A stretch of DNA of 64,000 bases from Escherichia coli O157:H7 str. 2011EL-2287 (GTDB lineage Bacteria; Pseudomonadota; Gammaproteobacteria; Enterobacterales; Enterobacteriaceae): NCBI GenBank assembly GCA_000614405.2, contig GCA_000614405.2_3612.1; one strand, 5' to 3'. Positions 14-44,985 of this stretch are shown one piece after another. Position numbers and translations under genes: made by a program. The notes below the pieces were generated by a model. It worked only from the letters and a program-made list of their open reading frames with translations, was not told where the DNA came from and did not search any database. Position 1 is the stretch's first letter. Every line of letters starts with the position of its first letter.

Positions 14-2077
14 ATGGCATCTGCATACAACCGTTTCGGTGAGCCAAACCCGAAAGCAACTAAGTATAAAAGTGGGGGAAGTGTGAAACGAGACTATCGT
101 GATGAAAAAGAAGTTGAAACTGTAGAGACTGTTTTAGAAAATACTAAAATTGTCCCTGTCCCACAACAAAATATCGGTCTGATGGCTGCACAATATTTTG
201 GTGTGCGATCAGCATTGTCCCAAGAAGACGGTGTGACAGTCACTGCAACATATTTCCCATATTACGACCGCTACGGAAATCTGTCTGGTTTCAAAAAGCG
301 TGACTGGACTATTCCTAAAGAGCAAAGGGGCCATTTCTCCGTTGTTGGCATCGTAAAGGCCAACTCCCAGATGTTTGGTCAAAAGCTGTGTGCATCTTCC
401 AACAACCGTAAGCAGATTAACGTTTGTGAGGGAGAAGGTGATGTTATTGCAGCATGGCAGGCTGCATATCAGATACAAGTAAAAGGGATTCTCACCAACG
501 CTAAAGCCCCGGCAAAGGTGAAGCAGTGGGCTAAAGAGGTCCAGGACGGGATCGACGCAGTTATCAACGGTGGTGATCTGGCAGGAAAACCCTGCCTGCC
601 TTTTGTTGGAATTAACTGTGGATGTGCAAACGCAGTAGATACTTTTGCAAACAATGAGAAGTTTATCCGTAGCTATGGAACAGTTGTGCTGGCAATGGAT
701 AACGATGCAGCTAACGAGGTAGAGAAGCAAAAACACGTCATTAAAGGTGTTGAGGCCACGCACAATATCGCAGCATTTTTGATGGCTGATAACGTTTACC
801 ACGTAGAATACCCTGGTGAAGTAAATGACCCTGACGGTGTAAAAGATATCCGAGACATGCTGAAGGCTAAAAAGCTGGAAGATATTGTCAACATGTTCCG
901 GCACCCTGTTAAATATGTGCCTGATGCTGTGTCGGATTTAGAAGACTTCTCTATCGAGTCTTTGCGGAAAAAGACTTCCAACGGGGTAGATATCAGTGCA
1001 GAGTTCCCAAAACTGCAAAAAATGCTAAAAGGCTTGCACAAAGGGACACTCGTAATGCTTACAGGTCCATCAGGCGGCGGTAAAACAACCGTGGCTAAAA
1101 AACTGGAACACTGTATTGCAAGATACCTAATGGACCCGACATGCCCGAAGGCCGATGACTATGAAGAGGATGATCGTCTATGCATGATCCATCTTGAGGA
1201 GGATCCAGAGGAAGCAATTAACTCCTTGTATGCAAACCAGTTAGGGTTTGATGTTAAAGAGTTTGTTGAAGATCCTAGCCAGTTTTTAACTGATCAAGAA
1301 CATGCAGAGATTCACCAATCATGGGCAAAAGCTGGAAAAATCAAAGTGTTCAAACATTTCGGGTCTATTCCAGTGGACGAGTTGATTACCAAGCTTAAGC
1401 AAATGGTCTGCCTATACCATTGTCGCTATATTGTGCTGGATCACCTGTCTATGGTAATTTCAGGGCTTAATGTTAAAGATGAGCGAAAAGAACTGGACAT
1501 GGCTATGACTCAGCTGGCTGCGTTTTGTAAGCAGTTTAACGTGTTTATCTTGGTGATCGCTCACCTCAAACGTACAGAGATTGTGCCTCCTAAGGACAAG
1601 GATGGTAACCCATTACCTTTCTGGTATCCTGTGCGAAAAGAGAATTTGCGAGGATCGGCTGGGCTTGAACAGTTGAGTTGGGTAGTCATAGGTGTCGAGG
1701 CCGAAGAAATGGTGGATCGTTCTCGTGGGCGTGTCCGTCTGGTAGGTCTTAAAAACCGTCCAGCAAAAACTTTAGGTATTGCTGACACTTTAGTTATGGA
1801 CCCACATACAGGTAAGTTCCATGATGCCAGTAATTGGTACTGGGACAAAGAAATGCAGATGTTTACAGACGGAGAAGGTGGGGAGATTGTTTGGAGACCT
1901 CAGGCCATGTTTGAGGACCAAGAGCATGCAGTTGTAGAAACACCTATGGGCAAGGTTGTAGCCGATAAGGTTGTAACTCCTACTATTAAGCCTGTTGACA
2001 CGCAGGAAGACCTCCAGTACGATGATCCATCCTCTGATCCGGTCCCCGGTTTTGAGGATGATGAAACACCTTTTTAA
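14..2077 (+). CDS. DNA primase-helicase (TOPRIM primase domain fused to DnaB/T7 gp4-like helicase); frame is open to the window edge so the N-terminus may lie upstream
   Basis: 687-aa ORF; primase motifs NVCEGEGD and VLAMDNDAAN; Walker A GPSGGGKTT; acidic C-terminal tail ending EDDETPF; GGAAG SD before ATG at 14. Confidence 0.85.
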   Translation: MASAYNRFGEPNPKATKYKSGGSVKRDYRDEKEVETVETVLENTKIVPVPQQNIGLMAAQYFGVRSALSQEDGVTVTATYFPYYDRYGNLSGFKKRDWTIPKEQRGHFSVVGIVKANSQMFGQKLCASSNNRKQINVCEGEGDVIAAWQAAYQIQVKGILTNAKAPAKVKQWAKEVQDGIDAVINGGDLAGKPCLPFVGINCGCANAVDTFANNEKFIRSYGTVVLAMDNDAANEVEKQKHVIKGVEATHNIAAFLMADNVYHVEYPGEVNDPDGVKDIRDMLKAKKLEDIVNMFRHPVKYVPDAVSDLEDFSIESLRKKTSNGVDISAEFPKLQKMLKGLHKGTLVMLTGPSGGGKTTVAKKLEHCIARYLMDPTCPKADDYEEDDRLCMIHLEEDPEEAINSLYANQLGFDVKEFVEDPSQFLTDQEHAEIHQSWAKAGKIKVFKHFGSIPVDELITKLKQMVCLYHCRYIVLDHLSMVISGLNVKDERKELDMAMTQLAAFCKQFNVFILVIAHLKRTEIVPPKDKDGNPLPFWYPVRKENLRGSAGLEQLSWVVIGVEAEEMVDRSRGRVRLVGLKNRPAKTLGIADTLVMDPHTGKFHDASNWYWDKEMQMFTDGEGGEIVWRPQAMFEDQEHAVVETPMGKVVADKVVTPTIKPVDTQEDLQYDDPSSDPVPGFEDDETPF

Positions 2078-2135: not shown

Positions 2136-4565
2136 ATGAGCATGTGGTCGTTCGACTTTGAGTCATCCGGTTTGCTGGAAGACCCAGATCTTTATTATCA
2201 CTGCGGCCTGTTTAAAGAGCTGAATAAGAACCGTTTTATGCTGTTCCTTCCTCTAAATGACCGCACACACTACTCCGAGGAGGATATAGAAAAGGCTAAG
2301 AACTTCATTCTGGCAAAGAAAACTCTTTATAAAGATTTTGAAGTTCGCATAGCAGATTTTTCAGAGTTGGAAGGTTGGCTTACAGGAAATTCTGACTGGT
2401 CACCAACAGCTTTGAACTGCCATAACTGCTACAGTTATGACTTTATGCTGATGGAAAGATTATCTGGTATTCATTTTGATATGTTCCGTGATCCTAAATG
2501 TATGGGGACTATCAACGATCACCAGGTTAACCTGTTTGATACGTTGGCGATGAGCCGAATCTTGTGGCCTGATCGCCCTTTACCAAAAGGTTGTCCGGAC
2601 TCTGTATTCAACCCGGTTACTAAGAAAATGCAGCCTGTTGGTCCTCACGGCCTTATGGCATGGGGCTACGCCCTTGGTAACCAGAAAGTTCAAATTGATG
2701 ACTGGCGCGATCTTCCGTTATGGAAGTATGTGGATCGTGTATTTGAGGACGTTATCATCCAGGAGCTGCTCTGGAAAGAGCTGGTAGCGGAATCAAAAGG
2801 TGTATTCTACGGCAAATCTGACATGCAGAACTTTATGTACGATCCTGCCAAAGAGAAGCCGAAAGGGTTCAAGAAGATCACCTGGAAGAACGCATTACGT
2901 CGAGGCATGTTGCAGCACTTCCTGATGGAGCTGCAGGCCCGTCAGGGTGTATACTTCGACATAGATGGAGCTATTGCTTTACGTGACCGTTGCGATGCGT
3001 GGATGAAAGAAATCGCTGATCGTGTTGAACCACAACTGCCTTTAAAAGAGCTGTTAATGTCTCAGCGGCCCAAGTTCCCTGAAAAGCCGTTTAACCAAGA
3101 TGGGACAATCTCTAATAATGGTTGGAAATGGTTAAAAGATAAGCTTGGCTATCCTGTGGACATGAGTGCTTTAGAGTTCAAAGCCCCACCTAAGCGAGCA
3201 TTTACCTCTACAGGAGATGTCAGTAAGATGGGGATAAAATGGTGTGAAGAGATGGGCTGCAAAGACCACGATAAGATGGCTGATTTCTTGAGAGGCTATA
3301 TTAAGGGCACCTCCACACCACAACCTTTACCTAAAGAGCTGATGGATCAGGCAATAAGCGATCTGCAGCAGAAGCGAATGCCTGACTGCAAGATACCTAT
3401 GAAAATCAGCAATCAGGACGATATTAAGCGATACCTGATCAGTGCTGGTTGGCTTCCGACAATGTGGAGAACTAAGGATGTAACTAAAGACAGCAAGAAG
3501 AAAGCTTTACCTGATGCAGATGTTGATGCACGAGTATATGCATATATGGACGAGCTTTTGGAGTCAGAGTATTGTGACCTAATTATCAACTTCTGGAACA
3601 AAACTGATGCTAAGTTCCAGACAACCGTGCACAAGTTCCGAAGCTTTCCTAACTCCGAAAGGATTAAAAAGGAAGTATTCGGGAAAATACGTAGAAAAGC
3701 TAGGGCACTTATTACTTCTCCGCAACTGAAAGATACGTTTGGACACCTGTGTCCGAATCTTGAAAAATTGAACGGAGAGATGGCTAAAGATATCGTCTTA
3801 TGGTTATCATTGCGAAACCGCAGATCGGTCCTTGATCCACTCAAGGAGGATAAGGTTGACACTGGTCTTCTTAATCACCCACGCTTGAAGATTGACCATA
3901 AGCTTCCTGCTAAAAGTTCTGGGCTAACAAACACTTCCAGACAGAAACACAGTATTTGTGCAAACATGCCTAAACCATCTCCTAAAGTGGTTATGGGTAA
4001 AGAGATGCGTAGTCTATGGGGTGTTCCTCCGGGATACTTTGAGATCGGTATTGACGGGTCCAACTTAGAGCAGCTTATCGGAGCTTGGGGTGCCTTTGAG
4101 TTCGACAACGGCTTGTATTATGATGTTGTAAGTAACGGGGACGCACACCAAAACAATGCTGAGGCATATACAAAAGTAGCAGGTAGAGAGGTGTCTCGTA
4201 ACGACGGTAAACCTATCACGTATGGGGTTATGTACGGGGCACAAAAAGATAAAGTTGCAGACATGCTGGATATCTCTCCAGAGTTGGGACAAAGGGTAAT
4301 CGATGCACTCTGGGATGCCAACCCTGGTCTTAAGGGGCGCAAAGAGGATCTGGAGAAATTCTGGGAAGCAACAGGTAAGAAGTTTATCTACTCTTTTGAT
4401 GGTCATGCTATCTGGACCCGATCTAAACACTCTTTACTTAATGCATACCAACAGAATGGTGGTGCATCGCTGTGTGACTTAGTTGGGATACTCATGCACC
4501 ACCAAATGGTGAAGCGTGGGTGGTACGATGAAGGTGTTCGTCGTATTATTTATTACCATAAATAA
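2136..4565 (+). CDS. DNA polymerase, family A, exon 1 (3'-5' exonuclease domain plus polymerase motifs A and B); ORF as read stops 2 codons into an intron, true exon end about 4559
   Basis: Exo I FDFESSG; motif A IGIDGSNLEQL; motif B RNDGKPITYGVMYG; ends ...RRIIYYH exactly at the His of motif C (HDE); SD AAGGAG upstream. Confidence 0.88.
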   Translation: MSMWSFDFESSGLLEDPDLYYHCGLFKELNKNRFMLFLPLNDRTHYSEEDIEKAKNFILAKKTLYKDFEVRIADFSELEGWLTGNSDWSPTALNCHNCYSYDFMLMERLSGIHFDMFRDPKCMGTINDHQVNLFDTLAMSRILWPDRPLPKGCPDSVFNPVTKKMQPVGPHGLMAWGYALGNQKVQIDDWRDLPLWKYVDRVFEDVIIQELLWKELVAESKGVFYGKSDMQNFMYDPAKEKPKGFKKITWKNALRRGMLQHFLMELQARQGVYFDIDGAIALRDRCDAWMKEIADRVEPQLPLKELLMSQRPKFPEKPFNQDGTISNNGWKWLKDKLGYPVDMSALEFKAPPKRAFTSTGDVSKMGIKWCEEMGCKDHDKMADFLRGYIKGTSTPQPLPKELMDQAISDLQQKRMPDCKIPMKISNQDDIKRYLISAGWLPTMWRTKDVTKDSKKKALPDADVDARVYAYMDELLESEYCDLIINFWNKTDAKFQTTVHKFRSFPNSERIKKEVFGKIRRKARALITSPQLKDTFGHLCPNLEKLNGEMAKDIVLWLSLRNRRSVLDPLKEDKVDTGLLNHPRLKIDHKLPAKSSGLTNTSRQKHSICANMPKPSPKVVMGKEMRSLWGVPPGYFEIGIDGSNLEQLIGAWGAFEFDNGLYYDVVSNGDAHQNNAEAYTKVAGREVSRNDGKPITYGVMYGAQKDKVADMLDISPELGQRVIDALWDANPGLKGRKEDLEKFWEATGKKFIYSFDGHAIWTRSKHSLLNAYQQNGGASLCDLVGILMHHQMVKRGWYDEGVRRIIYYHK

Positions 4566-4835
4566 CATTGTGGCTTCATAGAGTAATCTATGTCGAATAA
4601 CCTCTTTAACTGCGGGAAGCCTAAACCTTATGGCAAGGTAATCCGCAACGAAGCGCTCAAAAGAGCGAACGCTCAGAGGCCATTCCGAAAGGAAGTAGAC
4701 CAGCAAGTGCGGTCGAAATGGGAGGATTCCTGTGGTTGCTTATCATAGGAATATGAGATGGTCCGATCCTACGTGAAAACGTATGGCTATGCACGTAATG
4801 GTGCGGGGTAGCTTAACGACCTACCTGAACTATTG
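4560..4835 (+). ncRNA. putative group I self-splicing intron (no homing endonuclease ORF) interrupting the DNA polymerase gene
   Basis: 276-nt gap between pol exons; preceded by U, ends in G; contains AACUGCGGGAAG and AAUCCGCAAC resembling group I P/Q core elements; flanking exons restore YYH-DEY (motif C). Confidence 0.6.
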
Positions 4836-5189
4836 GATGAGTACCAACTTCAGGTCCCTGACACACCTAAGTATAAGACTGTGTACACCTTCGACACAAT
4901 TGAAGAACTGGAAGCATTTAAGGCAGAGCAGGAAGCCAAACTTCATGTGTTCGACGGTCATAAGTACAAAAAGGCACGCAAGGATGAAAACGGAAACGAG
5001 GTGGTTGACAGAGACGGAAACACGGTGTACGATCCTATCCTGAACGATGACGGAAAGCTTGAACTTATCTGGAGCCCTGTGGGCGAGATGGTGGTACATT
5101 GCTTCTGGCAAGCTTCTAAAATGATGGGAGTCCCGTTCCAGATCACAGGTGAATACTTGTGTGGTCGTAACTGGGGTGATTGTCACTAA
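4836..5189 (+). CDS. DNA polymerase, family A, exon 2 (motif C Asp-Glu onward to C-terminus)
   Basis: In-frame continuation DEYQL...; C-terminus GRNWGDCH matches Pol I/T7 gp5 GxNW..H terminal motif. Confidence 0.75.
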   Translation, partial: DEYQLQVPDTPKYKTVYTFDTIEELEAFKAEQEAKLHVFDGHKYKKARKDENGNEVVDRDGNTVYDPILNDDGKLELIWSPVGEMVVHCFWQASKMMGVPFQITGEYLCGRNWGDCH

Positions 5190-8014: not shown

Positions 8015-8380
8015 ATGGAACAAATGAACGATCAAGCGTCGGTTGCGATGAACGAGCAAGAACAACCTCAAGAATTTTTCTTAGGGTTAAGTAAAGATCA
8101 AGTGTCTCTTCTGCTAGTGCTTTCTTCTTTCATGGGAAGACTTCAGGAGCTCACACAACAGCCAGAGGCTGAACAATTATTCCAAGCTTTGCGTGAAGAA
8201 GAAAAATATCGTCGTTTGGACTATGCCTTAGGTTGGGTAGCTCAACAACGGGATATGCTGATGGCCCTCTCTGGGACCACAAGTTTTGCAATGGGCCTGT
8301 TGGCTCAAGTTCAGGACAAATTAATTCAAGCAGGGTTCGCACACACGGCAAGCACTAACGAAGAACAAGGAGACAAATAA
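8015..8380 (+). CDS. hypothetical protein
   Basis: ORF with SD GGAGA upstream. Confidence 0.5.
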   Translation: MEQMNDQASVAMNEQEQPQEFFLGLSKDQVSLLLVLSSFMGRLQELTQQPEAEQLFQALREEEKYRRLDYALGWVAQQRDMLMALSGTTSFAMGLLAQVQDKLIQAGFAHTASTNEEQGDK

Positions 8381-9606
8381 TGAGCGTTATTCAACAATTC
8401 GCTAACCCAATGAATCCGCGTGAAACTGTTTTACTAGCTCACGGCATGATTAAACGTGTTAGCATCAAGCCTATTAAAGGTGCTGATCCTACAACAGGTA
8501 TTAAAACCACTGTGTGGCAAGGTAAGAAAATTGAATCCAGCCACACCATCTCTTTACTGATTTCTGAACTGGATTCCTCTGATAACCTGCTTCAAGGTGG
8601 TGAAGAAGTCTGGATCAGCATGGGTGATAAGCTGCTTAAACCCGGTCATCAAGACTCTGTCTCTGTTAAGATTGATGACAAGTGGGAAACCGTAACGCCA
8701 GGATGGATCGTAAATATCCCTTTGAAGGCAAACGAGCATAACGGTAAGACCTATTACAAGGGCTCACTGGCTAAGATGGTTAAGCTGGGTGCAGGAGAGG
8801 CTCCAGCAGCGACTCAGCAGCAAAAACAGCAACAAGGTGCACAATCACAAGGCCAGAAGCAGAAACCTCAGCAGAATGCCAATCAGGACGTTTTACGCAT
8901 CTATGGTGATGTGACTCAGATTGTTGGCAACGTGGTTACTGTTAATGACCACAAGATTGGCGAAGGTGCTATGGTTGTAACTGATGAGCAGCTTAAAGAC
9001 CTGGTGGTAGGTGGTCGTGTTGCAGCCATTGTTGACAAAGACACCGGAAACATTATCAGTGGTTTCAAGGCCTATCCTCCTAAGGCAGAGAACGGCACTC
9101 AAGGATCTGGTGGCAAGCGTAAATCCTCTTACGACCCTATCGGTGTGGAAACGGGGCATAGCATCAATGCGTTGCAGATCATCCTGGATCGCGGGTTTAA
9201 GGTAGACGACCCACTGGGCGTGGCTAAAACACTGCACGTAGTCACCATTGAGCTTAAGAAAGAGTATGCTCAAGCCACCAACCGAACTGAAGATGAAGTA
9301 GGTGCCAGTGTCGGTAATGCGGTGTTGAACGCTTGTCGCCGTATTGACAAGAAAACGAAAGTTGATGATTTTGCAGCGGCAATTACTGCAGAAGCAAAAG
9401 ATGTCTTGACTAATCTGGCTGAACCGTTGTACGATTGGATCAAGAACGGTGCTGGGTCAACCGACCATCAAGAACCTCAGGCTGCCAAACAGGAAGCAGC
9501 TCCACAGCAAAACACTGTAGACGCTCCTCCTGTAAATGATGCGGAAGATGACCCAATGGATCAGAATCCAGCACAGTACGCCTTTGATGATGACATCCCT
9601 TTTTAA
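8380..9606 (+). CDS. ssb: single-stranded DNA-binding protein (SSB-like) with Gln-rich linker
   Basis: 408-aa ORF ending AFDDDIPF, the hallmark acidic C-terminal tail of bacterial-type SSB. Confidence 0.7.
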   Translation: MSVIQQFANPMNPRETVLLAHGMIKRVSIKPIKGADPTTGIKTTVWQGKKIESSHTISLLISELDSSDNLLQGGEEVWISMGDKLLKPGHQDSVSVKIDDKWETVTPGWIVNIPLKANEHNGKTYYKGSLAKMVKLGAGEAPAATQQQKQQQGAQSQGQKQKPQQNANQDVLRIYGDVTQIVGNVVTVNDHKIGEGAMVVTDEQLKDLVVGGRVAAIVDKDTGNIISGFKAYPPKAENGTQGSGGKRKSSYDPIGVETGHSINALQIILDRGFKVDDPLGVAKTLHVVTIELKKEYAQATNRTEDEVGASVGNAVLNACRRIDKKTKVDDFAAAITAEAKDVLTNLAEPLYDWIKNGAGSTDHQEPQAAKQEAAPQQNTVDAPPVNDAEDDPMDQNPAQYAFDDDIPF

Positions 9607-23782: not shown

Positions 23783-24202
23783 ATGAACATTAAATCTAAT
23801 AATCCGGCATATAGCTTTGATAACGCTTTTTGTCACGGTCCGGCGGCGAAAGGATTCGAAATCGATGGTAAACTAATTATTGTCAATGTTGACGGGGAAG
23901 AGGTTGCAGTATATCCGGTGGCAGACGTAAAAAGCCGTTTACAATGCCGCATTGATGTTACCGCCTATCAGCTTGATCCGGTCCGCATAGTTGCCCTGGT
24001 CCTGGAAGAAGAAATTAAAGCCATGCACCATAGCAACAGGTTTATTGGTGACGCTCAGGATAATATGAAGGTGTGCCGCCATAAAGTTAATGAAGTGCTT
24101 AAAGAGTACGGCTATAAAGATCTTATGATCAAACGTGATGAAAAATTCCGGTACCGTAACGACCTGGCAAATCGGATTTTTGAAATATACGAATCATTAT
24201 AA
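23783..24202 (+). CDS. hypothetical protein
   Basis: ORF with SD AAGAGG; upstream TTGACA-N17-TATATT promoter. Confidence 0.55.
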   Translation: MNIKSNNPAYSFDNAFCHGPAAKGFEIDGKLIIVNVDGEEVAVYPVADVKSRLQCRIDVTAYQLDPVRIVALVLEEEIKAMHHSNRFIGDAQDNMKVCRHKVNEVLKEYGYKDLMIKRDEKFRYRNDLANRIFEIYESL

Positions 24203-24220
24203 TTTTTTAACTGAATTATC

Positions 24221-24246
24221 AAGGGGCTTAGGCCCCTTTCTTTTTG
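24221..24246 (+). terminator. rho-independent terminator ending the plus-strand gene array
   Basis: AGGGGC-TTAG-GCCCCT hairpin followed by TTCTTTTTG. Confidence 0.7.
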
Positions 24247-25156
24247 TCTGATCTTCCCCCTACCATAAACGGCCCTACCTGGCAAGTGGAATAATTGACG
24301 AGCCATCAACCCCACACACTGTACAAATATACATGGAAAATAACTATTGCATAATTTTTCATTGTGTGGTAGCAAGTCCATTTTTACCCGTTTTCTCTCC
24401 CAAAAGTGCACGTAATGCCGCTATTGCACAAATTTTAACCTGATGCACATCTCCAATATCTTGTCAACAACTAAAAATCTTTATAAGTCATACACTTACA
24501 CAGCATCGAAAGCGTGTTCTACGCGAAAAATCGAGTATAACTATAGCCGCCAGATCTCAGAATTCACGTACGCACGCCATTCTATAGCCTGCAAAGTATT
24601 TATTCCAACCACAGAATAACGGAATAGTCAATACCTGCATAAAATAATTATTCGTGTAAACTGCATAACATAAATCAGCTCAGGTGTCAACATTTTTCGT
24701 AAACAGTCCGAAATTATCACGATGAGTTATCATAAACAGAGAAATCTTTAGTCGTCTAATGTTTACTGTACATTACTATATTGACTGGAATCATTAGATG
24801 ACTAATAGAAAGATAAGAAATAATTAACAATACAATTATTTTATCTGTAACAATAAGGCAACTATGCAAACGAATGGCATGGCGCGACGGAGTCGCGACA
24901 TAATATAAAAGCAGTAACCATCACCCCCGTGATAGTTTGTCTGCAATCTATTAATCAGATCATAGTTGCCTTGTATTTAGTTAATCATGACATAACAAGC
25001 AAGGCAACTATAGATCTGCTAATAGTTGCCCTGCTTTTATATTATGTCATAGAAACACCCGAAGGGGTGACCAAAGGTCACCTGGCATAGCCAGTGAAAT
25101 ATTGTAAACAAGTTAATTATTGTCATGCAAACGAATGGCATGGCTTATCATCTCTG

Positions 25157-25350
25157 TGTAAACAGTTTGTTTGTAAACAGTTTATACGTGAACAGTTAAC
25201 TATGTAAACTATTGAGAATGTAAACAGTAAAGGAAGTGAATAGTAAGCGAGTGAATATTAATAGCGTGAATAGTGACAGCGTAAACAGTCAGGCATGTCA
25301 ATTAAGTCTAAAGTGTCAAAGGTGTCATATTATGTCACCATTATGTCAGA
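25157..25350. repeat. array of short degenerate tandem direct repeats (GTAAACAGT / GTGAATAGT units, then TGTCA units)
   Basis: About 9 units of GT(A/G)AA(C/T)AGT at 12-17 bp spacing, then about 6 TGTCA repeats; no coding potential. Confidence 0.6.
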
Positions 25351-25609
25351 CAAGTTTTTCTCCTCTTTGTCAAGTGCTGCATGAAAATTTACAATCTGGT
25401 ATGGTAGCATTTTTGCGGCCCTGTTTACATTCAGTTGTGTATGTATAAGCCTTGTTGTGTGGGCGTTTAGACGTCTAGACGGTTGGAAGTCTACAGGTCA
25501 ATATCTAATCTATTGGTTGCTAACTATATCCCACACAAATAGTAAGAAATATAATTGTTATGTGTGTAAACTGTAACTCATGTTATCAATCCCTGTATGG
25601 ATCGCCAGT

Positions 25610-25637
25610 GGTGCGCATAATGGGTATTATGTTAAAT
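25610..25637 (+). other. dif: dif-like XerC/XerD site-specific recombination site
   Basis: GGTGCGCATAA-TGGGTA-TTATGTTAAAT: both 11-bp arms identical to E. coli dif as recalled, 2 differences in the 6-bp central region. Confidence 0.7.
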
Positions 25638-26765
25638 TGCCCGTAATGATAACAGTTCTCACAATGATAGGTATTCTCATTCACCCCACAAGATAGGTTG
25701 CAAATGTTGTGCCACTGTGTGAACGGCCTCACCTATTAATTTGCCTCACTGCCTCGATATTTGAGAATTATTATAAGAATGAGAAGTATTCCCATTCCGT
25801 CCGCCTGGCAGCACTCCTGTCGGTCAGGTCAAAATCGTGGTAGAATTGGGCCTATTCAGATATTTCTGGCTGACTCTTCAGGTCTGTGTGGGAAAAGCCA
25901 ACCTCTCCGGCGGGGCAGGGGGAGGTCAATTAAAAAATTTACGTGGTGTATGAAGCGCTCTTCAGGTAAGGCAGGTATTATGGGATGAAACCCTCTTCAG
26001 GCAATGATATTTGTGGGTGTGATATTTGCTGGAAAGCCAGATATGACGGGACTCCCGGCGGGGCAGGGGTAGTACAGACAGGGAAAATATGGGGATGTAG
26101 TTGGGTGAATTGATCGGGCAGGTAGAGTATGGAATATGTTACAAGTATGTTAAATATGGAGGTTGAATATCTGTAGGATTTGTGTGTAAAATCAAAGACT
26201 TAAGGGGTGTTGTGGTATTTTCTATAAATAATTCAAGTTTAATAGGCAATATTTGTCTCTATCCGCTTTGTGTGGTAAACAGATTCAGATTAGATTGGTT
26301 TACAAGTGTATACATAATATACAAATTAAAGATACAAGAAACCCCCCTCCCCCCTTCGGCTACCATTCACCTTTTCCTCTGACTGGTACTTAAACACTTA
26401 TTCAGACTCTTCAGGTTATCACCCATATATCATATGGCAGTGACTGGTGTCCTCCGGCCCCTCTTTCGTCACCCGTCCGCTTCGCCATGCTAATGCCATA
26501 GCTAATGGTTCGGTTGTTCACCCTGTTCACTCAGGTGTATCTCTATACCCCTTCAAACCGAAGAGAACAGAAAACCCGAATTACTCGGTAAAAGAAAAGA
26601 GAAGAACTTAATTTTATCAGGATAGGCAAGAATGTCAAGGCATGACTGCTCACTAAACAAGCAAACAGTCATGTGTGGGAGGTAAGTGATTGTGGTGGTA
26701 GGAAATTTAGTTGAAAGATGTGTTATAGGTGCTTCCAGCACTTTAGCCGGGCAGCTAATTGTGTG

Positions 26766-42604: not shown

Positions 42605-43867
42605 TCAGCAACCACAACTTCCGTAGTGCTTAACCCGTTCTATAACTTCCGCTTGCTTACCTTTATTGTAAGGACGGGAGTTTGGACTAGACAGGTACCC
42701 GGATACACGTCTGATCACACTGATCGTTCCCTCTTCATGGTTTCCACACTCTGGGCATACGAATCCCTTAGCTGTTGCACTGAACTCACCAGAGAAACCA
42801 CACTTAAGACATTTATCCACAGGCTGGTTGATACCAAAATACATAATGTGTTTATATCCAAAATCAACAAGAGCTTCCAAAGCATCTAAGTTGTTTTTCA
42901 GATTTGGTGTCTCTACGTATCCGATGTTGCCACCAGAGGAGATCATAGCAAAACCTTCCTCATACGCCCACTTATCAAAAGGAGAGCTATTGATCCATAC
43001 TGGCTGATGGAAACTGTTGGTGAGATATTCATGCTCGTGCTTCAACACTTCAGGATATTCACGATCCAGACAGGTTGCAGCTTTATAGCATAGACTCTCA
43101 GAAGGGGTGCCGTACAAGCTAAACGCTAGTCTACTTTCCTTCTTGTATCGCTCACAAGCATCTCTCATGTGCTGAAGTATTCCAAGAGCTAAAGCCTTGT
43201 CACCCTCCCTGCCCAAAATCTGACAGGTTTCATACACACCAATATACCCAATACTGATGGAAGCGTACCCGTCATAGAAGAGTTTATCAATACTCTCTTC
43301 AGGATCCAGGCGAGCAAGAGCGCCTTCACACCACATGATAGGGTTCTGCCCTGCCTTTGTTCCTTTTAGACGGTTAACCCTTACAAGGTGAGCCTCGTAT
43401 GCAAGATCCAGGTATTCGTCAAGAACTGCAAAGAAATCAACACCTTCCGTTTTAGCTTTTGCCGCAATCATTGGCAGGTTAAGGCTAACAACGCCTAAGT
43501 TAAATCTGCCAAGGTATTTCTCCTCGCCTGTTTCCAAGTCATTATATTTGCTAAGAAAACTCCGGCAACCCATGCTCGTTACTTTACCATCTGTCGAGCC
43601 TGTCACTTTACGATTTAGTGGAACAGAAACAAAGTCAGGATAAATCCGCTCTGCAGAGCATTCCAGAGCTAATCGTTTCAAATCATAGTTAGGATCTCCA
43701 GGGTTCATGTTGACACCCTCTTCTAGGAAGAACAGCACTTTAGGGAACACAGGTGTGATACGTTCTTCACCAAGACCCATTTTGTGGACTTTCAAGTAAT
43801 TTTTGGTAATCATTCTACCAAAGACCGAGGTATCCAGTCCTAAACTTAATGTGATAAAAGGGGTTTG
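42605..43867 (-). CDS. nrdD: anaerobic ribonucleoside-triphosphate reductase, exon 2 (C-terminal part with glycyl-radical and Zn-ribbon motifs)
   Basis: Frame open upstream of first ATG (43813) back to 43867, encoding QTPFITLSLGLDTS; glycyl radical motif RRVSGYL; CxxC...CxxC ribbon. Confidence 0.8.
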   Translation of the reverse strand, partial: QTPFITLSLGLDTSVFGRMITKNYLKVHKMGLGEERITPVFPKVLFFLEEGVNMNPGDPNYDLKRLALECSAERIYPDFVSVPLNRKVTGSTDGKVTSMGCRSFLSKYNDLETGEEKYLGRFNLGVVSLNLPMIAAKAKTEGVDFFAVLDEYLDLAYEAHLVRVNRLKGTKAGQNPIMWCEGALARLDPEESIDKLFYDGYASISIGYIGVYETCQILGREGDKALALGILQHMRDACERYKKESRLAFSLYGTPSESLCYKAATCLDREYPEVLKHEHEYLTNSFHQPVWINSSPFDKWAYEEGFAMISSGGNIGYVETPNLKNNLDALEALVDFGYKHIMYFGINQPVDKCLKCGFSGEFSATAKGFVCPECGNHEEGTISVIRRVSGYLSSPNSRPYNKGKQAEVIERVKHYGSCGC

Positions 43868-44124
43868 CGGTCCCCACCCTTATGTTTCCACAAGGCCAGA
43901 CTATCTCTTGCCTGAAATCACACCGTGTGATTCTTAATCAGACCTCTGCGTTTCGGAATCTTCCATAATCCCTACACCAAAAGGTTAGTCGTTACAACCG
44001 CCTCACTCCTTGTGAAGCTAGTCACGGGATTGGCATAGCTTGAGCCTTAGCGTTCCCCGTTAGCCAGCGATCAGCTGACCCCTCATACTGAGGTTAGCAG
44101 AGTTTTAAAACGGCCAGTTTGTTA
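43868..44124 (-). ncRNA. putative group I intron interrupting nrdD
   Basis: 257-nt gap between nrdD halves; follows U of GGU, ends in G; minus-strand segments resemble group I core elements (AAGAGAUAGUCUGG, AACGACUAACC). Confidence 0.55.
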
Positions 44125-44985
44125 ACCGTTGACAGAAGTTAACGTATTGATTTGATAGAGCAAAGTCTGCATGCTGTCAAATACGTCTTTATCTGTCATT
44201 TGCATTGCAACAGTCTCAGCATCTGGCAACCAATGTTCTTGGCAAAATTTAAGGTTCTTCTCATAGGTCGCTTCAGCATACTGTGCCAGATAATGATCAA
44301 TATGGCTCATAGTCTGACCCCCATATTGAGCACTAGCTACTGCACTAGAGATTTGGCTAAGGATTGTTGTTGCAACCCCTATTGACTTCGGCTTACTGAC
44401 ATGGGCGTTACCAATGTTGAATCCGTTTTCCAACATATCTGGATAATTTACCAAACAACAGTTTGTTAACGGACTGATCAAGTAGTCAAGATCATGCACA
44501 TGGATGAAGCCTTTATTGTGCTCTTCTGAGACACGGTCTGGCAGGATCTGTGTTGATGCAAGGTGTTTGCTAAGGATGCCTGCAAGCAGGTCACGATGAG
44601 TGTGTACATGATTGGTAGGCTTATTTGCGTTTTCTTTTGTAAATTCATCACAAGTGCGATCCAAGAAGCCACTAATATCTGCAAGCAGTTTTCCACCTGC
44701 CTCTCTGTTATTATCTCTTGTCTGCCTATACTGGATGTATTCTCTGGCTGCACATTTTAAACCCATATCCATAAGAGCGTCTTCAACAAGGATATGGATA
44801 TTTTTTACAGAGATCGTGCACTGGTCGATTGGTAGATTGTTAGCAACAACTTCATTAACCGCGCAGGCGATCCGGTAAGCTTCTTCTTCAGTATGTCCAG
44901 ACTCAAGTAAGGCGGACTCTGCCGCCTTGATCACCTTAATTCCGTTATAGAACTCTTCTCTACCGTCCCGTTTTACAACTTTCAC
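44122..44985 (-). CDS. nrdD: anaerobic ribonucleoside-triphosphate reductase, exon 1 (N-terminal part; ORF as read includes intron-encoded stop, exon end about 44125)
   Basis: 287-aa ORF ending ...YQINTLTSVNG, a conserved NrdD motif that continues as QTPF in exon 2. Confidence 0.8.
   Translation of the reverse strand: MKVVKRDGREEFYNGIKVIKAAESALLESGHTEEEAYRIACAVNEVVANNLPIDQCTISVKNIHILVEDALMDMGLKCAAREYIQYRQTRDNNREAGGKLLADISGFLDRTCDEFTKENANKPTNHVHTHRDLLAGILSKHLASTQILPDRVSEEHNKGFIHVHDLDYLISPLTNCCLVNYPDMLENGFNIGNAHVSKPKSIGVATTILSQISSAVASAQYGGQTMSHIDHYLAQYAEATYEKNLKFCQEHWLPDAETVAMQMTDKDVFDSMQTLLYQINTLTSVNG

Follow-up and report, generated by a model that had tools for sequence, protein, structure and literature searches.

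Evidence for a compact IA2-type group I intron without an endonuclease gene at motif C of the DNA polymerase gene in an rV5-like coliphage

How is an intact DNA polymerase obtained from a gene that is interrupted within its catalytic motif C? The stretch of DNA analysed here (64,000 nucleotides, hereafter the window) belongs to an rV5-like coliphage of the genus Vequintavirus and carries a family A DNA polymerase gene at 2136..5189 that is interrupted by a 276-nt insert at 4560..4835 (all features are on the plus strand unless indicated). Exon 1 (2136..4559, 808 codons), whose ATG is preceded by the strong ribosome-binding site AAGGAG, contains the three motifs recognized in the initial annotation, namely the exonuclease motif FDFES (2151..2165), motif A GIDGSNLE (4047..4070) and motif B GKPITYGVMYGA (4206..4241), and its last codon is the His codon CAU (4557..4559). 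In exon 2 (4836..5189, 117 codons plus the stop codon at 5187..5189), the first two codons, GAU GAG, encode the Asp-Glu of motif C, and the frame runs from DEYQL through GRNWGDCH. The insert separates the His codon of motif C from its Asp codon (YYH/DEYQL, the slash marking the junction), is preceded by U4559 and has G4835 as its last base.

The initial annotation, which proposed a group I-like intron splitting the polymerase at motif C, had correctly described both ends of the coding sequence, with a first ORF ending two codons after RRIIYYH, and the 276-nt gap following a U and ending with a G. Two details need amending: exon 2 had been placed in another frame and the product predicted at about 926 aa, whereas both exons share a single frame (276 = 92 x 3) and the joined product is 925 aa, with the His-Asp-Glu of motif C intact. 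The ORF 2136..4565 terminates with RRIIYYHK, and the single frame across the insert reads RRIIYYHK-stop...stop...stop...stop-LNDLPELLDEYQLQV, the insert containing four stops in this frame. The alignment of the joined protein with T7 gp5, suggested as a check at the outset, is continuous across the junction (E 7e-16); it places YYHDEYQL opposite WVHDEIQV, in register at the motif C Asp-Glu, with His808/Asp809 aligned to T7 H653/D654. The Pfam DNA_pol_A match of the joined protein also spans the junction, with a score of 31.9, slightly below the curated cut-off of 34.3. The predicted spliced junction is ...UAUUACCAU/GAUGAGUAC..., giving the predicted junction peptide IIYYHDEYQLQVPDTPK.

The boundaries of the insert are set by natural alleles that lack it. 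Intron-less sister phages (EduardKellenberger, rV5_ev156 and at least 12 further records) carry a 2778-nt CDS with the predicted junction, reading ...TATTACCAT/GATGAGTACC... at this site. Deleting 4560..4835 regenerates this uninterrupted allele base for base (CAT/GAT), with the same 925-aa protein, and the edges are unique to the base, as shifting the deletion by 1 nt either way fails to give the sister sequence. The nature of the insert was addressed with the Infernal scan that the initial annotation had recommended. The Rfam group I intron model RF00028 aligns with it over model positions 1-253 of 253 and scores 64.7 bits, above the gathering score of 50. With E 4e-14 in a search of the whole window, this match is far beyond chance, and no other match in the window reaches gathering level.

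We then built a P1-P10 secondary structure by hand, including the P7 pseudoknot, and tested it on six homologues, then on 11. With six homologues, the structure is 96.9% paired and 29 of the 75 pairs show compensatory changes, compared to 34-42% paired and 1-5 compensatory pairs in slid controls; none of 500 shuffles matches the real structure. With 11 homologues, the values are 94.2% and 36 compensatory pairs (4-13 in slid controls). Note that the MAFFT alignment of the 11 sequences had P4 offset by one column in five rows, which was corrected by hand before counting. Pairing reaches 90-100% in each of the helices P3, P4, P7 and P8, all four of which show compensatory changes, and the minimum free energy fold of the single sequence recovers P1-P6a, P7.1, P7.2 and P8-P9.2. 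In the RNAalifold consensus, the 3′ strand of P7 was instead paired to the 3′ splice junction, and the canonical covarying pseudoknot was used in its place.

In this structure, P1 (4556..4573) pairs CCAU/AA (4556..4561) with UUGUGG (4568..4573), part of the internal guide sequence (4566..4573); its six pairs are invariant and 100% paired in 11 homologues, and include the U4559.G4570 wobble at the 5′ splice site. The P2 hairpin CAUAGA-GUAA-UCUAUG (4577..4592) has 6/6 pairs with compensatory changes among the 11 homologues. The 5′ strand of P3 (4601..4606) pairs with 4720..4725 (100% paired, 3 compensatory pairs). P4 pairs 4611..4616 with 4642..4647 and encloses a short P5/P5a (4619..4639); it accounts for the segments resembling P and Q core elements that had been spotted in the initial annotation. 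P6/P6a (4648..4672) is minimal here and starts with an A.C mismatch. Across endonuclease-carrying and endonuclease-less introns P6a is only 53% paired, and its pairs are not comparable, as expected at the endonuclease insertion point. The P7 5′ strand (4676..4682; G, bulged A4677, GGCCA) pairs with UGGUCC (4759..4764) in a pseudoknot with the guanosine-binding site; it is 100% paired with 2 compensatory pairs, a U-A pair being replaced by C-G in the window. P7.1 (UUCC-GAAA-GGAA, 4683..4694) and P7.2 (GACCAGCAAGUGCGGUC, 4698..4714; 100% paired, 2 compensatory pairs) are joined by a GUA linker (4695..4697), followed by the 3′ strand of P3 and by the P8 hairpin (4726..4752; 100% paired, 5 compensatory pairs). 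P9.0 (GAU 4765..4767 with AUU 4832..4834) encloses P9 (4768..4786), P9.1 (4790..4805) and P9.2 (4806..4826), and the final base, G4835, is the omega-G. A P10 of only 4 bp, adjoining the P1 strand, is proposed from the sequence between exon 2 GAUG (4836..4839) and CAUU (4566..4569), without covariation support.

The RF00028 score, the U.G wobble in P1, the omega-G, the covarying P3-P8 core and the restored frame all point to a group I intron, and the arrangement of P7.1 and P7.2 between P7 and the P3 3′ strand, joined by G-U-A, is the signature that defines subgroup IA2 (PMC3428280). We therefore conclude, with a probability of about 95%, that 4560..4835 is a compact group I intron of the IA2, self-splicing type, without an endonuclease gene, residing in the essential polymerase gene. 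The whole gene would be transcribed into a single RNA in which the intron folds as P1-P9.2. A free guanosine held in P7 would attack the bond 3′ of U4559, and the released 5′ exon would then attack after G4835, positioned by P9.0 and P10. CAU would be joined to GAU in an mRNA for the 925-aa polymerase with its motif C complete. Translation of unspliced RNA would yield no more than an 809-aa product, without the catalytic Asp-Glu, because an in-frame UAA (4563..4565) lies two codons into the intron; ribosomes on such RNA would stop there, ahead of the ribozyme core. An early stop of this kind (AAAUAA or AAGUAA) recurs in every homologue examined other than the Avunavirus intron, where a stop occurs a few codons later.

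Could the insert be a decaying remnant that has lost its endonuclease, with an impaired ribozyme that splices poorly or only with the aid of proteins, and acting mainly as a brake on polymerase expression? It has no endonuclease gene, its P5, P6 and P7.1 are short compared to the 328-842-nt relatives, and it scores lower with RF00028 than the rest of the endonuclease-less set (64.7 versus 71-91 bits for the same-site homologues). However, the Vibrio phage versions, of 253-254 nt, are shorter still and yet score higher, indicating that small size is not decay. The core helices are all intact (97-100% paired), the intron is 100% conserved in 19 records with exons that differ by 1-4%, and the phages that carry it grow, the polymerase being essential. 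We thus regard decay as very improbable, and intact group I splicing as the preferred interpretation.

Retention of the insert in the RNA, with polypeptides of 809 and about 118 aa assembling after translation as for the split NrdA of Aeromonas phage Aeh1, would fit the many GenBank records that list two separate 'DNA polymerase' CDSs, and phage gene splits that do not involve splicing do exist (discussed in PMC7344957). Yet exon 2 has neither a ribosome-binding site nor an ATG or GTG start, and its only candidate start is a TTG within the intron (4833). Promoter and terminator signals in the intron do not rise above the shuffled background either, so that independent expression of exon 2 was rejected. 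The catalytic Asp-Glu would also lie at the extreme N-terminus of the separate peptide, the complete group I core kept by covariation would be pointless in an unspliced RNA, and the homologous intron of phage CB7 does splice (PMC7344957). Taken together, these points make an assembly of two polypeptides barely credible. An intein is ruled out because of the four in-frame stops, and translational bypass or frameshifting by same-frame exons separated by stops and an insert that constitutes a full group I ribozyme.

The initial annotation also stated that the gap has no ORF. Strictly, an ATG ORF of 52 codons is present at 4590..4748, which the rV5 RefSeq record lists as a 'hypothetical protein'; the statement holds only loosely, although this ORF is spurious. 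It overlaps the ribozyme from P2 to P8, is not preserved in homologous introns, and its product has no Pfam match and no similarity to four intron HNH proteins, which also led us to reject it as an endonuclease remnant. The 276-nt intron does not encode the homing endonuclease expected of a homing intron. A tblastn search with the four HNH proteins gave no match in the window, and no free-standing endonuclease that could act in collaborative homing was found near the polymerase gene within these 64 kb, which represent only part of the genome. Separately, a second, weaker-scoring group I intron is located in nrdD (43868..44124, minus strand).

Related introns occupy the same site in other Vequintavirinae, in Pakpunavirus and in Vibrio phages, many with an HNH gene in P6. 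Within Vequintavirus, presence of the intron is polymorphic: at least 14 records are intron-less, 24 have the 276-nt intron, about 31 have an HNH-carrying intron, with a 168-aa HNH gene in P6 in the sibling alleles, and a few have an endonuclease-less form of 328-329 nt. The window copy represents a lineage without endonuclease, found in the genus alongside intron-less and endonuclease-carrying alleles. The 276-nt sequence occurs at 100% identity in 19 phage records and at 99.6% in a further 4; all of these phages have been isolated and are viable. The intron of phage Aya differs by 7 substitutions, mostly in loops or preserving pairs. The intron is 100% identical across genomes whose flanking exons differ by 1.1-3.8%, with the nearest exon SNPs at +18 and -55 nt from the splice sites. 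A possible, rather speculative reading is that the 276-nt allele, rather than being carried along passively, is now sweeping through the Vequintaviruses, either immune to the HNH endonuclease of a rival intron or mobilised in trans by it. It would spread by recombination in mixed infections because the intron destroys the target site of the rival allele's HNH endonuclease, and would act as an immunity allele in a competition of intron versus intron.

Little of this is new biology, as the exact intron is already annotated; the practical value lies in annotation. In many deposited genomes of Vequintavirinae, Pakpunavirus and Vibrio phages, the polymerase is still annotated as two separate genes, accompanied by small ORFs that are spurious. 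Such records, including the truncated 775-aa enzyme of rV5, could be mended with the base-exact boundaries, the IA2 class and the fold. With three alleles at one site (no intron, intron without and with endonuclease), Vequintavirus, a well-sampled genus of easily grown E. coli phages, also provides a convenient natural setting in which the homing cycle and the competition between introns can be studied.

Group I introns in phage polymerase genes have reportedly been known since SPO1 (1990), and at the motif C site since PhiI and W31 (2004). The finding is correct but already known for sister phages, in records and in print: LL12 (MH491969), rV5 (NC_011041), RudolfGeigy (MZ501102) and others carry the same 276 nt, 100% identical, at the same site. 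The LL12 record reads 'intron-interrupted gene; intron splice site predicted based on homology', the LL12 paper reports a predicted intron disrupting the DNA polymerase gene (PMC6658697), and the BASEL phage records join the two exons as one CDS; none of these sources classifies or folds the intron, or supports it by experiment. The intron was overlooked in the rV5 paper and in the RefSeq record, which have a polymerase of 775 aa and small ORFs instead. More broadly, the polymerase introns of SPO1, SP82, Bastille and Pf-WMP3 and the td, nrdB and nrdD introns of T4 interrupt conserved, critical parts of DNA-metabolism genes and, as in the window, are often of subgroup IA2 and often have an early in-frame stop (PMC3428280, PMC3984707). 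They differ in location, the SPO1-type polymerase introns lying at 674-676, in the finger subdomain, and the T4 introns in other genes. The introns of the T7-like phages PhiI and W31 are reported to interrupt the His of His-Asp-Glu, site 881 when numbered after E. coli Pol I, which would correspond to the His/Asp site of the window; they are self-splicing, of subgroup IA2 with P7.1/P7.2 (PMC3428280), and have an HNH gene in P6a, like the endonuclease-carrying relatives of the window intron. In contrast, the window copy has no endonuclease gene, and the myovirus polymerase gene in which it resides encodes only a distant relative of T7 gp5. In Pectobacterium phage CB7, the homologous intron is inserted at the same H/DE site, between CB7_51 and CB7_49 (YYHK-stop, then ...LLDEYQLEV), and matches the window intron by blastn with 75% identity over 73% of the latter. 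It is longer (687 nt), its 127-aa HNH gene is a distant relative of those in the other introns (35-38% identity in partial alignments), its P4-P6 region differs and is unalignable with that of the window, and the CB7 gene has a second intron upstream. For this homologue, splicing at motif C was demonstrated by RT-PCR and sequencing (PMC7344957), and we infer that the polymerase transcript of the phage studied here is spliced likewise.

The 5′ part of the polymerase gene is an 809-aa ORF on the plus strand (2136..4565), with a strong ribosome-binding site (AAGGAG) upstream of its ATG and the C-terminus ...VRRIIYYHK*, and a second plus-strand ORF, running to 5189 and ending in GRNWGDCH*, contains DEYQLQV from position 4836. 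A 276-nt insert, preceded by a U and closed by a G, separates the His codon (CAU, 4557..4559) from the Asp codon (GAU, 4836..4838), exactly as the initial annotation had delimited it. That annotation also had coding resume in another frame and predicted a spliced product of about 926 aa, and here it needs correcting: 276 is divisible by 3, the exons share one frame (RRIIYYHK*..*..*..*LNDLPELLDEYQLQV, with four in-frame stops inside the insert), and the CDS made up of 2136..4559 and 4836..5189 is 2778 nt long and encodes a 925-aa protein (junction region ...RRIIYYHDEYQLQV...). We found neither a ribosome-binding site nor a proper start codon for exon 2, and no promoter- or terminator-like signal above background in the insert, so both exons would be carried on one transcript and the enzyme made only after splicing.

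With the last 235 residues of the 925-aa protein as tblastn query, we recovered an uninterrupted 705-nt match of 98-100% identity in rV5_ev156, EduardKellenberger, bov10K2, nomine and B9-1, whose DNA reads ...TATTACCAT|GATGAGTACC... within a polymerase CDS of 2778 nt; a 40-nt probe spanning the junction retrieved 14 intron-less records. By sequence comparison, the exon junction is set independently by these intron-less sister phages. The suggested alignment of the joined protein with the T7 gene 5 polymerase (gp5) runs through the junction (E 7e-16), with GIDGSNLE opposite T7 GIDASGLE at motif A and YYHDEYQL opposite WVHDEIQV at motif C, where the catalytic carboxylates are Asp654/Glu655 in T7 and Asp882/Glu883 in Klenow. 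The Pfam DNA_pol_A match (residues 620-822) likewise crosses the junction.

The segment 4560..4835 is a group I intron, as initially proposed. The Rfam group I model (RF00028) aligns along its entire length with 4550..4785 and scores 64.7 bits, against a gathering score of 50 bits (E 4e-14 for the 64-kb window), and is the sole Rfam family above threshold in the window. Five introns at the same site in other phages, all without endonuclease gene (JLBYU08, 329 nt; HMD-6, 328 nt; Avunavirus 18-1-2, 317 nt; Vibrio phages K470 and 10AMN, 254 and 253 nt), score 71-91 bits. On the alignment of these homologues, RNAalifold recovered P1-P6, P7.2, P8, P9, P9.1 and P9.2 with 28 compensatory pairs. When the canonical structure, including the P7 pseudoknot and P9.0, was written by hand and its pairs counted on the alignment, 96.9% of cells were paired and 29 of 75 pairs showed changes on both sides, the covariation score being 0.414 versus 0.185 ± 0.018 in shuffles (reached by none of 500); with partners slid by 1-3 columns as a control, pairing was 34-42%, with 1-5 such pairs. 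Within this structure, P7 is paired throughout (100%) and includes two compensatory pairs. Adding five endonuclease-carrying introns, their endonuclease loop excised, gave 94.2% pairing and 36 compensatory pairs, versus 4-13 in slid controls; the only helix to fail was P6a, which is the endonuclease insertion point. Folding the single sequence yields the same helices (MFE -88.4 kcal/mol, z = -2.7).

In the window, P1 contains the splice-site wobble U4559.G4570, and P7 is separated from P3′ by P7.1 (UUCC-GAAA-GGAA), GUA and P7.2, an arrangement used as a signature of subgroup IA2 (PMC3428280). For P9.0, GAU 4765..4767 is able to pair with AUU 4832..4834, immediately 5′ of the terminal G, and a predicted P10, without covariation support, can form between the guide CAUU 4566..4569 and GAUG at the start of exon 2. 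There is also an invariant 7-base complementarity between 4761..4767 (GUCCGAU; P7 3′ strand plus J7/9) and 4832..4838 (AUUGGAU; last intron and first three exon bases), which RNAalifold picked in place of P7 and three pairs of which are the proposed P9.0. The remaining pairs may be an alternative pre-splicing pairing or a coincidence, the latter being conceivable because both sides are otherwise constrained.

By the standard group I pathway, guanosine would attack after U4559 and the 5′ exon would then attack after G4835, while the UAA two codons into the intron would halt ribosomes before they unfold the ribozyme; an early in-frame stop is kept in nearly all homologous introns. For the Pectobacterium phage CB7, splicing of the intron between CB7_51 and CB7_49 was established by RT-PCR and sequencing (PMC7344957), and we checked that this intron occupies the same H|DE site, between the His and Asp codons. 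From the intact covarying core, the viable isolates with an identical intron and the CB7 result, we infer that the window's intron splices. A decaying, poorly splicing intron is unlikely, since the core is intact and conservation of the sequence is perfect. A polymerase made as two polypeptides from an unspliced insert is very unlikely, given the missing translation signals of exon 2, the covarying core and the splicing of the CB7 homologue. The in-frame stops, together with the ribozyme match, rule out an intein, a frameshift and bypass.

Across the polymerase gene, the window shares 98.5% identity with Escherichia phage RudolfGeigy and 96-98% with rV5/V5, LL12, PDX and about 110 other Vequintavirus records, which makes it a genome segment of an rV5-like E. 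coli myovirus. About 15 'Campylobacter phage' records (MG065635-MG065690; host given as C. jejuni, status UNVERIFIED) share 96-97.5% identity with the window's Vequintavirus across this gene and are placed by NCBI under Vequintavirus; their host attribution looks doubtful. The intron is already known: the GenBank record of LL12, whose intron is identical, labels the polymerase 'intron-interrupted gene; intron splice site predicted based on homology', the LL12 paper likewise reports a predicted intron interrupting it (PMC6658697), and the BASEL collection, whose methods define intron boundaries by comparison, joins the exons in RudolfGeigy and HeinrichReichert. It was missed in the rV5 paper, which described a 775-aa polymerase and introns in the terminase only, and rV5 RefSeq (NC_011041) gives the polymerase as two CDSs plus small ORFs, the 'hypothetical proteins' rv5_gp222 and gp221 (window 4590..4748 and 4783..5043) lying inside or across the intron. 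Split annotations also occur in JLBYU08, HMD-6, CR9, CB7, SSE121, SPA01 and Vibrio phages. In our literature search, no paper was found that classifies this 276-nt intron, describes its fold or demonstrates its splicing by experiment.

The RudolfGeigy annotation also gives nrdD (class III anaerobic ribonucleotide reductase) as a join. On the minus strand of the window, the exon 1 ORF (44985..44125) ends in ...TLTSVNG followed by UAA, exon 2 starts at 43867 with QTPFITL..., and the 257-nt insert (43868..44124) follows a U and ends in G. Its score with the group I model is 29.4 bits (E 2.4e-5 when 1 kb is searched), under the Rfam threshold of 50, and the whole-window scan missed it for that reason. 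An uninterrupted junction, SVNGQTPFITL, is present at 100% identity in MaxTheCat, indicating two group I introns in the window. Elsewhere on the plus strand, the primase-helicase (14..2077) ends in ...FEDDETPF, and a 408-aa 'hypothetical protein' (8380..9606), without Pfam hit, has a low-complexity Gln-rich middle and ends in ...FDDDIPF. These acidic, Phe-terminated tails resemble the C-termini by which T7 gp4 and gp2.5 dock on the polymerase, and the product of ORF 8380..9606 may be an unannotated single-strand DNA-binding protein. About 2.5 kb (about 24200..26700) without annotated gene in the RudolfGeigy counterpart separates rightward and leftward gene blocks and holds two short 15-nt tandem arrays (25158..25209 and 25236..25282); in LL12, a terminal repeat has been predicted within non-coding DNA where transcripts converge (PMC6658697).

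Within Vequintavirus, at least 14 records have no intron, 24 carry the window's 276-nt form (19 at 100%, four at 99.6%, one at 97.5%), about 31 an 842-nt intron with a 168-aa HNH gene, and a few its 328-329-nt endonuclease-less derivatives. Judged from its sequence, the 276-nt intron forms a lineage of its own, more compact than the 842-nt type, with short P5, P6 and P7.1 and only the two ends in common. Compared with RudolfGeigy, rV5, LL12 and D1, the intron shows no difference and the exons 1.1-3.8%, the nearest exon SNPs lying at -55 and +18 nt; compared with Aya, seven intron sites (2.5%) differ, most in loops or pair-preserving, against 5.8-10.2% in the exons. This is only suggestive of recent exchange between co-infecting phages, and ribozyme constraint could explain part of it.

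Introns at this site, after ...(Y/S/A)YH and before DE(Y/F/A/I)..., occur in Vequintavirus, Avunavirus, Seunavirus (SSE121), Certrevirus (CB7, CR9), the unclassified Vequintavirinae phage A5-4, Pakpunavirus (Pseudomonas phage SPA01) and Vibrio phages. In many of them the P6 stem encloses an HNH gene whose start codon lies within or beside that stem, and the HNH proteins of HeinrichReichert, CR9 and SPA01 are 48-56% identical to each other. In some relatives the polymerase gene holds a further upstream intron that follows the end of an HNH gene (18-1-2, record L009, 14..217, group I model score 47.5 bits; CB7, record L012, 1..370). The CB7 gene is described with two HNH-carrying introns (PMC7344957). 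In its H|DE intron (L012 701..1387), the usual P4 3′ strand and P6 (AAUCCGCAGCGAAG...AACGUUCAGAG) were not found, ...UAAUCC runs directly into UCAGAG, and the HNH gene belongs to another type; the core of this intron may be organised differently. The T7-like phages PhiI and W31 have introns described as lying at site 881 in E. coli numbering, with the HNH gene in P6a (PMC3428280), which would correspond to the codon and architecture seen in this family.
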